Shown here: positions 20,477-54,111 of the stretch, one piece after another | Position numbering within the stretch: the stretch's first letter is position 1 | How the letters are laid out: each line of letters starts with the position of its first letter | DNA from: a virus | Lineage: Duplodnaviria > Caudoviricetes | Length of the DNA stretch: 64,000 bases | Reading direction: 5' to 3' (one strand) | Virus record (IMG/VR): IMGVR_UViG_3300027845_000349 | Span: 23,805 to 87,804 of that record | Made by a program: the position numbers and the translations under genes | The notes under the pieces: generated by a model | Told to the model about the DNA's origin: nothing | Database searches by the model: none | Seen by the model: the letters and a program-made list of their open reading frames with translations, nothing else

Positions 20477-20563
20477 ATGAAATATTTTATATTTACAGCA
20501 ATAATAATTATACTTATGTTTTTATTTAATTTATTGTCAAAAGATGTAAACAAAGATGAATAG
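20477..20563 (+). CDS. 28-aa single-TM peptide
   Basis: MKYFIFTAIIIILMFLFNLLSKDVNKDE with GGGGGAAT SD; below the ORF-track cutoff. Confidence 0.55.
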   Translation: MKYFIFTAIIIILMFLFNLLSKDVNKDE

Positions 20564-20572
20564 TGAAAAATC

Positions 20573-20671
20573 GGGGATATGGCAGAATGGAGCCTTTCGA
20601 GGCGAATGCACAATTAGTCAATAATTGATCCATGGTGACACATGGTGGAGGAACAATACCTTCTATCTCCA
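20573..20671 (+). ncRNA. Non-canonical tRNA-like RNA with Ala-type acceptor and TCA at the anticodon position
   Basis: GGGGATA/TATCTCC-A acceptor; D-stem GCA/TGC with an inserted GCCT-TTCG-AGGC hairpin; CAATT-AGTCAAT-AATTG arm; long V-arm; T-arm GGAGG-AACAATA-CCTTC. Confidence 0.7.
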
Positions 20672-21540
20672 ATAGCCCTTGTGGGTGAATAATTTTTTTT
20701 TAGTTTTTTCATTACATCTGAATTATTTAACAGATGGGTGATAGAACTCTTATGCTTTTAGCCGGGAATAGAAGAGGCCTTTGGTTCTCGGCTTTTTTAT
20801 CGGGGGATAAATGGAATGTAGTAAATGTGAGAATATGAAAGATACCTGCTCTGTAGAGAATCTTTATGCTATAGGATATCTAAAAGCATGCCCTAATATA
20901 AAAGAGCCAGTACTGAACGAATATGGATGGCTGCTTAATCCTATGAGTGAGAAATACCAATTATCTAATGGCCATATCTTTTTAATTCCTGAAGAAATAA
21001 ACCAAAAATGGATCATGACTTGGATGATTACTAAAAACGGATCCGGAAGTTGTGGAAAAACAAAACCAGATTTATATATTTTCTCATATAAAAAAGCAAT
21101 TGAAGAAATTTTAAAGCACTACAGATTAAACGAATTAGACATAACCGAAATAAAATATATTTTTGAAAATAAGTTTGATAGTAGAAGAATTTTCATGGAA
21201 AAAGAAATAGATGAAGTTGAAGAAAAACCCGAAGAAATATATGTAAGTCCTTTTGAACATATAGAGTATGGAAATATTGGCGATCAGTTAGATTTATTCT
21301 AAATAAGTTAATAAAGTAATAAAAATAACTATTGATCAAAAGATTAAATGGCTATATTATTGATAATAACAATAATTATAGGAGAACTAAAATGTTCACA
21401 CAAGTTAAATGTACAGGAGAGGTAGAGAAGCTTCTGAAAGAGCATAAAGAAAAACACTTTTCTCATCTTAAATCATGGGCTGCGTATTTTATAGAAATGT
21501 CCAGACAAAGAGCTGAAGAAGATAATAAGGGGGGAGGTAA

Positions 21541-22666: not shown

Positions 22667-25019
22667 ATGGAAAGAATTAAAGATAGATAATTTACCACCC
22701 GATATATTAACAGGGGGCTATGAATTTATGCGTAAGTATAATCATAAAGATACATGGAGCGCATACTGGCCTTGTGATTTATCAATAATAGAAATATTTA
22801 AAATATTATATAACGAAAATTCTAACATAGGTTTTAAATACCGAAAACTAGAACCAAAAGTATCAACACATGAAGAGATAATGAAGCCAAATAGATATTG
22901 GAGAGGACTAGATGAAGAATTTCAAATGGTATGGGAGAAAGCAGATATGTATAGGGAAAATGACAATAAATACTTAATTCATGATGATTGGAGAGATAGA
23001 GCCTATTTTTCTGGTCGAAGATTCAAAGATGGTATACCACCGGAGGAAAAATGAAAGACTTAAAATATTATGAAGAAAAGAATAGAAAACTTCTCGAAGA
23101 AAATATAAAACTAGATCTTAAATTAAAACCAGTTAAAATAACAGTAGATTGTACAATATACAAAGAAGAAGATTTAGAAAAATCATTTGTTAAATATACT
23201 CTTAGAAAAACATGGAGAAGAGCTGCACGTGTAGAATTTGAGAAAGCAAAAGTTCCAACACATAGATTTTTAAAATGTTCTCCAGGTGCAAAACTTAACG
23301 GAATTAAACTCGATGATGGAATAATAATACCTATATTTGCACCTGAAGTCCTTGATGATAGTGAATTAACTTCAAATATGATGCGAGAAGGGCTCATTTT
23401 GTCATTACAGAATAAATATGACACTTATTATCATAAACTCTTATTATCGTTTGATCTTAGCGATTTACCAGAACAAATCCAGGATAAAATAAAAGAATGG
23501 GGTATTAATCATGGGCAATGAAAAAGATAAGGGCAAAGATGCTTGTCTGCATATAACGGAATTACCTGTAGGAGATCTTATTATTGTTAAAAATAATATA
23601 AATTGGAAATATTCTCCAAAAGAAGACATAACTCCATTAGAAGTTGCACTAATGTTTCCGATGTTTATGAGCTACCATACAACCGGTTATTTAACTCAGT
23701 ATGATTATTTAGGATATATCATAGAAAATAATCTAGAAAGACATTTTTGTAAGGATACAAATAATGAAAACAATATGTGATAGTTGTAAAAATAAATCAA
23801 CTTGCAACGCTGCTAAAAATATTGATCCTGGGCATGTGAGCTGTTCTGGATGGACTCCATACGAATATACAAATGCTAACGATACAGGAGCTAACAAATG
23901 ACAGATCTTGATAATTTTATAGAGATCTATAAATCTTTAGATATTGAACTAAAAGTGTTTGAGACAAATGAAGGTAAAGCATTTAAAATAGGAGAAGGAT
24001 CATATCAAGAGCAAGATATTACTATAAGTAGTAAATTTGGAGGGTATGGGGGTTTTTATTCTATCGTTAGATTCAGTAGATCAGGTGAATTTTTAGGACA
24101 AGATTTTTTTGAGTAAGGAGATTGATATGAGTGATAAGAAAAGAGAGCCTTTAAGTGGAACGTATGAAACTTCTACATTCAGAGAAATGATATTCTTTGA
24201 GTCACAAGTCAGAGAACTAGAAGCATACACAACACAACTTGAAGAAAAGCTGAAGATATATGAGAACGCATTAAAAGACATTAGAGATAATTATGATTGT
24301 GATGAGGATGCACATAAATACAATACTACATGTCGTTGCTGTTTAGCAGACGAAGCACTAAAAGAAATCAATGGTAACAGTAATGAAAAAACATAAAGAC
24401 AAGCGTAATCCTAATAAAACATCAATCAAGTTTTATACATGGCATTCAGACGGTACTAAAACATTAGTTCTTGAAATACCAAATAAAATATACCGGTCTA
24501 AATATTCAGATAGCAGAATGGAGGGTTATAGATGAAGTGTCCTAAGTGTGGAAGTACCACTATAGATTATGTTGCTTGTGGTTGTTATTGCATAATTTGT
24601 GATTACAATACAGGCAAACAGCCAGAAGAGAAAGACTGTTATACATGTATCAATTTTAATAAATGTGCTCCAGATCCAAAATTACAACTAAGAATAGAAT
24701 GTTGTGGAAATGATAGTTATTGTAACTACATAACCAAAAATGGAGAATCATGATGAAAGATAAACAATGAATGATAAGAAATGTGAAACGTGTTATTACG
24801 ATACAGATAGAATACTCTCGGATTGTTCAAACAACCCAATCGATAGACAAGAAATAGCATGTGATCAATGTGGAGATGAATTGTCTCATTACAGAGAATT
24901 AACAGGCATAGAACCACAAGAGAAGACGGGATTAGATGAACTAAGAAACTTATGTACTATTTACGATAGCATTTCAAGCACTACTATTTTGAAATTGCTA
25001 AAGGAACAGGAGTAAATGA

Positions 25020-37854: not shown

Positions 37855-37856
37855 AT

Positions 37857-37930
37857 GCTCCGGTAGCCCAACTGGTAGAGGCATGGGACTTAAAATCCTT
37901 GTGTTGACAGTTCGACTCTGTCTCGGAGTA
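37857..37930 (+). tRNA. trnL: tRNA-Leu(TAA), short variable loop
   Basis: Cloverleaf; anticodon TAA 37891-37893; 5-nt variable loop; A73; no encoded CCA. Confidence 0.9.
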
Positions 37931-37936
37931 ATTCAA

Positions 37937-38010
37937 GCCTTGGTGGCCTAATTGGTATAGGCGCTGGTCTTAGGAACCAGACTTTGAGAGTTCGAGTCTC
38001 TCCCGAGGTA
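37937..38010 (+). tRNA. trnL: tRNA-Leu(TAG), short variable loop
   Basis: Cloverleaf; CTGGT-CTTAGGA-ACCAG; 5-nt variable loop; A73. Confidence 0.9.
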
Positions 38011-38016
38011 ATACAT

Positions 38017-38101
38017 AGAAGAGTATGTTAGCGGCTATACACGCAGTCTTGAAAACTGTTTACACTTAACGGTGTCGTGGGTTCGAGTCCCACCTCTTCT
38101 G
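38017..38101 (+). tRNA. trnS: tRNA-Ser(TGA)
   Basis: AGAAGAG/CTCTTCT acceptor, anticodon TGA 38050-38052, long V-arm, G73. Confidence 0.92.
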
Positions 38102-38105
38102 TTAT

Positions 38106-38189
38106 GGACAAATGCGATAATCGGTATTCGGCTTGATTGCTAATCAAGTGATCTGAAAGGGTTTATAGGTTCGAGTCCTATTTTGTCCG
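38106..38189 (+). tRNA. trnS: tRNA-Ser(GCT)
   Basis: GGACAAA/TTTGTCC acceptor, CTTGA-TTGCTAA-TCAAG, long V-arm, G73. Confidence 0.92.
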
Positions 38190-38193
38190 ACAT

Positions 38194-38277
38194 GGGTAGG
38201 TATGCAAACTGGTGAAGCAAACGGTCTGTAAAACCGTGACGTAAGATACATTGTGAGTTCGAATCTCACCTTACCCA
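38194..38277 (+). tRNA. trnY: tRNA-Tyr(GTA)
   Basis: GGGTAGG/CTTACCC acceptor, ACGGT-CTGTAAA-ACCGT, long V-arm, A73. Confidence 0.92.
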
Positions 38278-38338
38278 CTTCTTCAAGTTCTAAATTCTGG
38301 GGCTTTTTTTATTTGTTAAATATGTATATAATACTATC

Positions 38339-51749: not shown

Positions 51750-52606
51750 TGGGAGGAGGAACATATTCAGCTACTAGTTCAATTGCAAGAGAAACCACAT
51801 ATTCAACAATGGCTGCTAGTGATATATTCACCAAAAGAGAAATTGATATTAAAATGATACCTTCTGGTACTATTAGAGAGTGCTGTGATTCTGAAGAACA
51901 TCCAGAAACAATTCCTGTTATAATTGCTCTTGATGTAACCGGTTCAATGGGAATGATTCCTGAAAACTTTATAAAAGAGAGTATGTCAAAAATGATGGGA
52001 TCTCTCTATTCTGATGGATTTAAAGATTCTCAGGTCCTTTTTATCGGAATCGGAGATCATGAATGTGACAGAGCACCCATTCAGGTTGGTCAGTTTGAAG
52101 CTGATGATCAGATAATGGATAAATGGTTAAAAAATATCTACCTTGAAGGTGGTGGAGGAGGAAACGATGGTGAAAGCTATCTTTTGGCTTGGTATTATGC
52201 TGCTTTTCACACAAAAATTGATTCTTTTGAAAAGAGAGGGAAGAAGGGATTTTTAGTTACAGTTGGTGATGAGCCTACTCTTAAGACACTTCCTGTAGAA
52301 GTACAGAAAGAAATCTTTGGAGAAAATGGACAATATACTTCAATGACTTCAGATGAGATCCTTAAAAAAGCAGAAGAGAAATATAATGTTTTTCATCTTC
52401 ATATAAAAGAAACAAGATCTGGATCAATGGTTCATGTTCAAGATGGTTGGAAGCAACTACTTAAAAATAATGTTATTATGGTTGATTCCTATAAAGATAT
52501 TCCTGGGATTATATCAGATTTAATATCTGTAAATTCAGAACATAAAAAACCAGAAAACAGTAATTCAGCTAAACCAATTGTAGAAAAAGAAGAGGTTATG
52601 CTTTAA
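51749..52606 (+). CDS. vWA-domain protein
   Basis: IALDVTGSMG MIDAS-like motif, GGGGGN.GESY, VTVGDEP. Confidence 0.85.
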   Translation: MGGGTYSATSSIARETTYSTMAASDIFTKREIDIKMIPSGTIRECCDSEEHPETIPVIIALDVTGSMGMIPENFIKESMSKMMGSLYSDGFKDSQVLFIGIGDHECDRAPIQVGQFEADDQIMDKWLKNIYLEGGGGGNDGESYLLAWYYAAFHTKIDSFEKRGKKGFLVTVGDEPTLKTLPVEVQKEIFGENGQYTSMTSDEILKKAEEKYNVFHLHIKETRSGSMVHVQDGWKQLLKNNVIMVDSYKDIPGIISDLISVNSEHKKPENSNSAKPIVEKEEVML

Positions 52607-53806: not shown

Positions 53807-54003
53807 ACCACAGTTTAACTGTCAAAGGTTAGCTGTGGTATATCTATAAGACATTATCGACTGATGTTTACGGTACGCTTTAAACTATCTGGACAGCGGT
53901 AACAATGGTTTCGGTAAACCTACAAAGAGTTTCAAGCTTGAGTATCGTCTAATAATAGATAGTACAGATTGTTTGAGATATTTCAACTGTAAAAGAAATA
54001 CTC
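53807..54003 (+). ncRNA. Candidate structured RNA upstream of the second tRNA-like element
   Basis: ORF-free; four or more nested helices. Confidence 0.35.
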
Positions 54004-54008
54004 ATCAA

Positions 54009-54111
54009 GGGAAGTTAGCTCAGTTGGTAGAGCAAGCCAATATAGCATGTTGTGAAAAATCGCAAACTTGTATAATTGGTTATGTCATAGGTTCAAGCCC
54101 TATACTTTCCA
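54009..54111 (+). ncRNA. tRNA-like RNA with Ala-type acceptor and extended (37-nt) anticodon region
   Basis: GGGAAGT/ACTTTCC-A acceptor; canonical D-arm GCTC-AGTTGGTA-GAGC; AGCCA/TGGTT stem enclosing 37 nt; T-arm ATAGG-TTCAAGC-CCTAT. Confidence 0.8.

Follow-up and report, generated by a model that had tools for sequence, protein, structure and literature searches.

A 64,000-nt stretch of a tailed phage genome (Caudoviricetes; IMG/VR record IMGVR_UViG_3300027845_000349, positions 23,805 to 87,804), called the window here, carries a 99-nt tRNA-like RNA gene, W1, on the + strand at window positions 20573-20671. W1 appears to be a real tRNA-derived small RNA gene in which the L-shape and the ends look maintained and the decoding parts have changed. 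The reading that we favor, tentatively and at somewhat below an even chance, is that W1 derives from a tRNA, has been maintained, undergoes tRNA-like processing, is probably alanylated, and serves as a non-decoding mimic. Besides the fold, the retained core nucleotides, and the AlaRS acceptor set described below, it is favored because the intergenic slot of W1 holds RNA genes in related phages (a tRNA-Gln in contigs L003 and L006, and an aberrant gene in phage G001), because a second aberrant gene of the same phage, W2, shares G1-C72, G2-C71, G3.U70, and A73 with it, and because the sequence is identical in an independent assembly. Irregular tRNA-like genes of phages are already known as a kind. 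The combination found in W1, a class II body with an alanine acceptor stem and a D-loop hairpin, matches no Rfam family, and no counterpart was found in the limited literature consulted.

W1 is a class II cloverleaf with a 7-bp acceptor stem and a 5-bp T stem (7/5) and no encoded CCA. From its 5' end it consists of the acceptor strand GGGGAUA (20573-20579), UG, the D-stem strand GCA, a D-loop made of GAAUGGA, an extra 12-nt hairpin (GCCU-UUCG-AGGC, 20592-20603) and GAA, the second D-stem strand UGC, a single A, the anticodon arm CAAUU-AGUCAAU-AAUUG (20611-20627), AU, the long variable (V) arm CCAUG-GUGACA-CAUGG (20630-20645), U, the T arm GGAGG-AACAAUA-CCUUC (20647-20663), the partner acceptor strand UAUCUCC (20664-20670), and the discriminator A73 at 20671. 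The acceptor pairs include G1-C72, G2-C71, G3.U70, and G4-C69. The D-loop hairpin follows G18, G19, and A20, has pair probabilities of 0.71-0.83, and occurs as a single copy in the window. The triplet UCA occupies positions 34-36 (20618-20620), with G33 before it and A37 after it, and in the minimum free energy (MFE) structure A32-U38 is closed, which shrinks the anticodon loop to 5 nt. The V arm has a 5-bp stem and a 6-nt loop (pair probabilities 0.95-0.97). The T arm has A instead of U at both 54 and 55.

This cloverleaf had been described in an earlier sequence-only reading of the window, and its coordinates and every described feature were found correct, both on the sequence itself and by RNAfold. 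The cloverleaf is both the MFE and the centroid structure (-29.4 kcal/mol, z = -2.17, 5 of 200 shuffles equally stable), and the same MFE structure was obtained with 0, 20, 40, 60, or 100 nt of flanking sequence (mean pair probability 0.70-0.87). All 29 stem pairs are intact (27 Watson-Crick and two G.U). W1 has a G+C content of 45%, compared with 29.5% in its flanks. It is a single-copy gene, and the independent European Nucleotide Archive (ENA) assembly in which it is identical comes from another sample.

As judged by the features that define tRNAs, W1 has the 7-bp acceptor, the 5-bp T stem, and the D and anticodon arms. It also has the core nucleotides of the family (U8, A14, R15-Y48 in the form A15-U48, G18G19, A21, G53-C61, C56, and A58), together with G9, A26, and a purine at 37. 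In class II numbering, a G13/A22 mismatch adjoins the 3-bp D stem. It lacks U33 and T54-Psi55, having G33 and the T-loop AACAAUA. Replacement of U33 by G, replacement of U54 and U55 by A, and the 12-nt D-loop hairpin are its only departures from the tRNA consensus. The nucleotides that W1 retains are those that build the L-shape and the elbow.

Standard tRNA searches do not recognize W1. It did not reach the gathering score (29 bits) of the Rfam tRNA model RF00005, nor E ≤ 10 with that model in a 451-nt search, and it matched neither the tRNA-Sec nor the tmRNA model at E ≤ 10. ARAGORN did not call it at the default, 90%, or 80% thresholds and made no tmRNA call. The expectation of the sequence-only reading that tRNA scanners would miss this gene was thus borne out by both programs. 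When the 12-nt hairpin was deleted in silico, ARAGORN called a tRNA with exactly the ends of W1, at the 90% threshold only; the "SeC" label that it gave comes from the anticodon alone. A tRNA on the minus strand at this location was rejected, as both strands were covered by ARAGORN and Rfam and no call was made.

The genome was also scanned for a strict tRNA skeleton. This required an acceptor stem of 7 bp, in which no more than one G.U was allowed, next to a T stem of 5 bp, together with an anticodon stem of 5 bp and a D stem of 3-4 bp; the T and anticodon loops both had to be 7 nt long. Five sites were found in the 87.8-kb genome: three true long-arm tRNAs, W1, and one weak site. The skeleton energy of W1 is -13.7 kcal, compared with -15 to -21 kcal for the true long-arm tRNAs. 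Sixty dinucleotide-shuffled genomes gave 0.13 sites per genome, none below -2 kcal, and these chance figures are generous to W1 because the skeleton was defined after W1 was seen. In a looser scan (acceptor, T arm, and D stem), W1 and W2 were the two most stable candidates of the genome, and candidates at -25 kcal or better occurred at 0.05 per shuffled genome. W1 is far beyond chance, and chance is no serious explanation for it. That W1 is a chance fold of intergenic sequence, or the structure of some other, non-tRNA RNA, is hardly credible: the z-score against shuffles of its own 99 nt is only -2.17 and no Rfam family matches, but shuffled genomes never yielded a skeleton of similar stability, W1 ranks in the top two of the genome's acceptor-plus-T-arm candidates, the tRNA core nucleotides are correctly placed, and relatives have tRNA genes at the same site.

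In bacteria, alanyl-tRNA synthetase (AlaRS) recognizes A73, G2-C71, G3.U70, and G4-C69, plus G20 (PMC9976931). W1 has all four of the acceptor determinants, so at the sequence level the AlaRS identity set claimed earlier for its acceptor stem is the complete bacterial one. At the minor determinant G20 the numbering is ambiguous; position 20 of W1 is A, and the hairpin that comes next starts with G. Leucine identity depends on A73, A15-U48, G18G19, U54:A58, and G18:U55 (PMC9976931). Charging by leucyl-tRNA synthetase (LeuRS) was considered and rejected; A73, A15-U48, and G18G19 of W1 fit, but W1 no longer has U54:A58 and G18:U55. In Escherichia coli, long-arm tRNAs of irregular type that carry G3:U70 take alanine, and serine was inserted only by a G73 variant (PMC5389517); charging by seryl-tRNA synthetase was rejected on the same precedent, as long-arm G3:U70 tRNAs without G73 took alanine and not serine. 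Because the four acceptor determinants are present, the LeuRS contacts are lost, and long-arm G3:U70 tRNAs provide a precedent, the predicted charge of W1 is alanine.

A second alanine-type tRNA-like gene, W2, is located on the + strand at 54009-54111. It scores 48.4 bits with the Rfam tRNA model and contains a 36-nt insert. The D and T arms of W2 are canonical, and 36-37 nt forming an extended hairpin stand in place of the anticodon loop. Its acceptor (GGGAAGU/ACUUUCC-A) has G1-C72, G2-C71, G3.U70, and A73. G3.U70 is absent from all five canonical tRNAs of the phage and from the tRNA-Gln of the relatives. The aberrant gene of G001 has G3.U70 and A73 in one register and G4.U69 in the register used by ARAGORN. 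Because W1, W2, and the G001 gene (in one register) have G3.U70 and the canonical tRNAs do not, alanine acceptor signals appear to be confined to the aberrant tRNA-like genes in this small clade. The 40-nt leader of W2 (53968-54007) and that of the aberrant G001 gene (L004:2728-2767) share 97.5% identity; by contrast, the G001 homologue of the 163-aa protein encoded downstream of W1 is only 58% identical.

Transcription, processing, and charging of W1, and everything about its target, are inferred in the following model. W1 would be transcribed together with the upstream early genes. Host RNase P would cut at G20573 to form the 5' end, and RNase Z or exonucleases would trim after A20671 to form the 3' end; such processing should be possible because the acceptor/T-arm stack and the G19-C56 elbow, which are all that it needs, are kept. 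CCA would be added by the host enzyme, and no tRNA gene of this phage encodes CCA. Host AlaRS would then charge W1, because every acceptor-stem determinant is present and AlaRS disregards the remaining molecule. W1 would be a poor ribosomal substrate on account of G33, A54A55, and the hairpin that protrudes from its D-loop. It would therefore work away from the ribosome, mimicking a tRNA and keeping host factors that bind tRNAs occupied. Its role may be that of a decoy or titrant for a tRNA-directed defense or quality-control factor or, less likely, that of an alanine donor.

Decoding by W1 is expected to be poor because of G33, the possible A32-U38 pair that leaves a 5-nt loop, and the A54A55 T-loop. 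The sequence-only reading had suggested a UGA read-through role for W1, and the genome speaks against it. The phage uses the standard code, with TGA ending 43 of 130 genes and a coding density of 92% (table 11), and there are no read-through extensions: none of the TGA-terminated genes has an in-frame extension of 40 aa or more. With TGA used as a stop and no extensions, the phage differs from stop-codon-recoded phages that carry suppressor tRNAs. It is quite improbable that W1 is a weak alanine-inserting UGA suppressor, or a mistranslating tRNA, that reaches the ribosome. UCA at 34-36 with A37 in a 7-nt loop and the alanine identity set would suit such a tRNA, and natural long-arm tRNAs with mismatched anticodon and identity decode in E. 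coli (PMC5389517). The TGA usage of the genome stands against it, as do the replacement of the near-universal U33 by G33, the closing of the loop to 5 nt by A32-U38, and a T-loop without U54 and U55.

W1 lies on the coding strand in a 248-nt gap between a 28-aa open reading frame (ORF) and a 163-aa gene. The 163-aa gene (20811-21302, + strand) is Cys-rich and served as the synteny anchor; a handful of relatives were found for it. In two contigs, L003 and L006, the slot contains a canonical tRNA-Gln(UUG) preceded by a promoter. In G001, a related phage of 81 kb that has no Rfam-recognized tRNA, it contains an aberrant tRNA-like gene of 72-73 nt. This gene, which has C33 and whose anticodon stem is mismatched, is called Leu(AAG) by ARAGORN and is not recognized by Rfam. 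Distant homologues of the 163-aa gene have no upstream RNA slot, and a functional tie between the slot and the 163-aa gene was rejected on this ground. Because the slot content varies among relatives and distant homologues lack the slot, the site is best described, from these comparisons, as a lineage-specific RNA-gene site whose RNA is not tied to the 163-aa protein.

The slot-bearing relatives have additional structured elements. L003:2760-3010 (same in L006:1350-1610) contains an extended -10 promoter (TTGTATAAT), an 8-bp hairpin, and the tRNA-Gln(UUG), which is followed by a 10-codon mini-ORF behind a AGTATCTAATT leader. Upstream of the slot, L002:30-215 and L004:2440-2600 have a CTTGCCCGYATGGGCTG hairpin in common and several G+C-rich hairpins (MFE -53 to -58 kcal), and the L002 region also has a T-arm-like GAGGTTCGATTCCTC; this upstream region may encode a further structured RNA or be what remains of a tRNA. 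P0002 (Logan SRR31655986), which has a 282-nt upstream gap, is the closest relative of the 163-aa gene, and P0006 (GCA_024449875.1) is that of the gene upstream of W1.

The main rival to a maintained mimic is a relic, in which W1 would be what is left of a long-arm (class II) tRNA gene in a tRNA hot-spot, without function and folding only because it is young. We consider this unlikely. W1 is an orphan for which no homologues were found, the slot content turns over among close relatives (tRNA-Gln, an aberrant tRNA-like gene, and W1), U33 and U54U55 are gone, and W1 falls below the threshold of every tRNA detector, at default settings even without the hairpin; all of this speaks for a relic. The pattern of change in W1 points the other way. 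Neutral drift that altered 2-3 of about 13 conserved loop positions would, as a rough estimate, predict about eight or more broken stem pairs, and W1 has none among 29; because the loops changed and no pair was broken, the fold appears to have been kept while the decoding elements changed. The cloverleaf is the MFE structure in all contexts, only functional loops are damaged, and the inserted sequence forms a neat, stable hairpin. In addition, G+C content is 45% against a background of 30%, and W2, the second aberrant gene of the same phage, has the same alanine acceptor set.

The immediate surroundings of W1 bear on another explanation. Directly upstream is the hydrophobic 28-aa ORF (20477-20563, + strand), which has a GGGGG ribosome-binding site and agrees with the transmembrane peptide gene that the sequence-only reading had placed before W1; it is probably co-transcribed with W1. 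Downstream, at 20675-20701 (+ strand), are a hairpin (GCCC-UUGU-GGGU), GAAUAA, and a run of nine U; a hairpin followed by GUGAAUAA recurs in L003. A conserved hairpin with a U-run at 20760-20798 (+ strand) ends the leader of the downstream gene, with compensatory changes among the window, L003/L006, L004, and L002; it may be a terminator or a 5' stem-loop, and it bounds the RNA slot. This leader hairpin is kept, with compensatory changes, in all slot-bearing relatives. W1 could accordingly be a cis-acting processing module, its shape a mere RNase P/RNase Z cleavage signal that separates and stabilizes the flanking early mRNAs, with the excised RNA lacking any function and the alanine identity incidental. 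Such a module would suit a location between two same-strand genes without a promoter of its own, where a hairpin with a U-run comes next and the conserved leader of the downstream gene after that, and the features that W1 has kept are precisely those for end processing. It would leave unexplained the complete four-element AlaRS set and its recurrence in W2, as well as the retained anticodon arm, V arm, and extra hairpin, and distant homologues of the downstream gene lack any such element. We regard it as improbable.

The leader of the 163-aa gene, about 100 nt long, is conserved among the window (20704-20810), L003:3040-3161, L004:2880-3000, and L002:250-360. Its elements are a YTGAAYT box, a hairpin (GCCGG...CCGGC) in which the changes between relatives are compensatory, a U-run, and a GGGGG ribosome-binding site. 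Its appearance suggests a terminator/attenuator or a 5' stem-loop with a protective role. On its 3' acceptor strand (20661-20673), W1 can pair with a GGGUGAUAGAA stretch in this region (20734-20746), which resembles the 5' acceptor strand, at 11 of 13 positions. This complementarity was treated as chance, as it is not conserved in relatives.

Alanine identity in an RNA that does not decode is known from tmRNA. Its tRNA-like domain (TLD), which occurs on its own as a TLD-only tmRNA in mycobacteriophage DS6A (PMC4131195), resembles W1 in the GGGG... acceptor, G3.U70, and A73. In this domain the anticodon arm is missing, the D region is unpaired, and the T-loop is canonical, whereas W1 has four arms plus the V arm and an atypical T-loop. 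The DS6A molecule is the nearest functional precedent for an alanine-type non-decoding mimic, and W1 lacks every structural hallmark of that family. A tmRNA-like rescue role, which the sequence-only reading had also raised, does not fit W1, which lacks an mRNA-like part as well as a canonical T-loop and has a complete anticodon arm. W1 could instead be an inhibitor resembling a mini-tmRNA, its tRNA-like domain of alanine type titrating SmpB or otherwise disturbing trans-translation; such an action has been proposed for the DS6A molecule. The GGGG... acceptor, G3.U70, and A73 are as in tmRNA, and the TLD-only tmRNA known from a phage belongs to a type of molecule that inhibits tmRNA (PMC4131195). 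We find this very improbable, as W1 matches no tmRNA model and draws no ARAGORN tmRNA call, its D stem is paired, its T-loop is non-canonical, and full anticodon and V arms stand at the SmpB site of tmRNA.

Irregular long-arm tRNAs with G3:U70 are present in bacteria and phages and have been proposed to be suppressors and/or regulatory RNAs (PMC5389517). These allo-tRNAs are like W1 in having a long V arm and G3:U70 together with a non-alanine anticodon. They differ in having a 12-bp acceptor branch in an 8/4 or 9/3 acceptor/T arrangement, normal U33 and T-loops, and efficient decoding (PMC5389517), whereas W1 has a 7/5 branch, which places it outside the group, as well as G33, A54A55, and the D-loop hairpin. 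W1 agrees with tRNA-Sec only in the UCA triplet and the long V arm. A tRNA-Sec has 8/5 (or 9/4) acceptor/T stems, a 6-bp D stem with a 4-nt loop, and G73; W1 is set apart by its 7/5 branch (an eighth pair would be U-C), its 3-bp D stem, A73, and the lack of a model match.

The phage's own class II tRNAs resemble W1 in the 7/5 branch, the 3-bp D stem, the UGGCAGAAUGG-type D arm, A15-U48, the long V arm, and the lack of CCA. They differ from W1 in that W1 fails the covariance model and ARAGORN and has G33, A54A55, the D-loop hairpin, and an alanine acceptor. The D arm of W1 (UGGCAGAAUGG...) resembles that of bacterial Leu-, Ser-, and Tyr-type tRNAs. In phage T4, the stable RNAs species 1 and 2 (rnaC and rnaD) are small, have tRNA-like ends, and lie inside the tRNA cluster. 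W1 is 17 kb from the cluster of its phage, and it can be compared with the T4 species by description only.

Some tRNAs are charged and then used outside translation. A tRNA-Gly of Staphylococcus aureus reportedly escapes EF-Tu and donates to cell-wall synthesis (PMC7826273), and FemX is reported to be Ala-tRNA-dependent (PMC2175331). The likeness to W1 is one of functional analogy only: such tRNAs are chargeable, depart from the translation consensus, and act off the ribosome, as predicted for W1. They are host genes with partner transferases, whereas W1 is a phage gene without a transferase of the Fem/MprF type among the 93 ORFs scanned and without a cell-wall link. Phage tRNA genes are now viewed as weapons against tRNA-cleaving host defenses (PMC10264068, PMC11555353).

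Several observations weigh against W1 being a maintained, alanylated mimic. Promoter search and inspection of the sequence gave no convincing sigma-70 promoter between the 28-aa ORF and W1. The phage encodes no partner enzyme: no transferase of the Fem/MprF type, CCA-adding enzyme, RNA repair enzyme or ligase, or synthetase was found among the 93 ORFs. Pair probabilities are only 0.73-0.76 in the short (3-bp) D stem and in the anticodon stem, which is rich in A-U pairs. The argument from stem maintenance concerns one sequence and is post hoc, and the alanine set could be inherited from an ancestor instead of selected. Finally, no W1 homologue was found in G001, the related contigs, pattern scans of IMG/VR, GTDB genomes, or GenBank phages.

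These searches covered W1 and its neighbors. Blastn against GenBank phages gave nothing for W1 or its 4-kb region, and three exact or degenerate W1 patterns had no match in IMG/VR. A DNA search of G001, and blastn-short and nhmmer searches of G001, L002, L003, and L006, found no W1 homologue. A covariance model of W1 run over 178 kb of related DNA had a single other match (18 bits, at 52295), which is in coding sequence and has many broken pairs. The only pattern match in GTDB (L017, a Bacillota metagenome-assembled genome) was rejected; it is G+C-rich coding sequence, about one such match is expected by chance, and it fails both the model and ARAGORN. For the neighboring genes, single-protein scans of viral contigs and an alignment scan of GTDB genomes gave nothing. 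The immediate neighbor proteins of W1 matched nothing in Pfam or PHROGs, and the predicted structure of the 163-aa protein (pLDDT 41) was unusable.

The complete record is an 87,804-bp phage genome with direct terminal repeats and 31% G+C, and an identical phage sequence was assembled independently from another sample. Its particle genes are of the myovirus type (sheath and baseplate J), with a terminase and a portal. The closest GenBank terminase is 32% identical, and the terminase relatives are short fragments without tRNAs. Five canonical tRNAs (Leu, Leu, Ser, Ser, and Tyr) were identified by ARAGORN and Rfam at 37856-38278. They belong only to the bacterial long-arm families, form a tight cluster (2-6 nt between genes) immediately upstream of the terminase gene, and have no encoded CCA. 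The Pfam scan of the 93 ORFs identified a peptide deformylase, a PurA-like adenylosuccinate synthetase, an inorganic pyrophosphatase-like protein, two Lar-like restriction-alleviation proteins, and two DNA methylases. An attP site or integration remnant at W1 was rejected, as no integrase family is present in the 93 ORFs and W1 is a whole cloverleaf instead of a 3' half. An intron was likewise rejected; group I introns are far longer than the 12-nt insert, and strong ribosome-binding sites (GGGGG) indicate that the host is bacterial.

To our knowledge, tRNA-like genes that scanners reject are almost never examined, and W1 is a practical warning that such genes escape standard annotation entirely. 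From its sequence, W1 seems to retain what is needed for excision, CCA-tailing, and alanylation and to have lost what is needed for decoding. A broader idea, which is speculative and which we think rather unlikely, is that W1, W2, and the G001 gene represent an unrecognized class of phage RNAs: alanine-chargeable tRNA mimics that act off the ribosome, with the anticodon region disabled or replaced and with added hairpins. If this class is real, its members may bait or titrate a host reader of the tRNA acceptor or elbow, or may deliver alanine to a non-ribosomal acceptor; candidate host factors would include a tRNA-directed defense nuclease, a CCA-end modifier, SmpB, or a factor of the ribosome-associated quality control (RQC) type. 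Were W1 found to be expressed and charged, it would be a natural case of viral aminoacyl-tRNA mimicry outside translation, and it would demonstrate that the elbow region of a tRNA can accept a grafted hairpin without loss of the fold.

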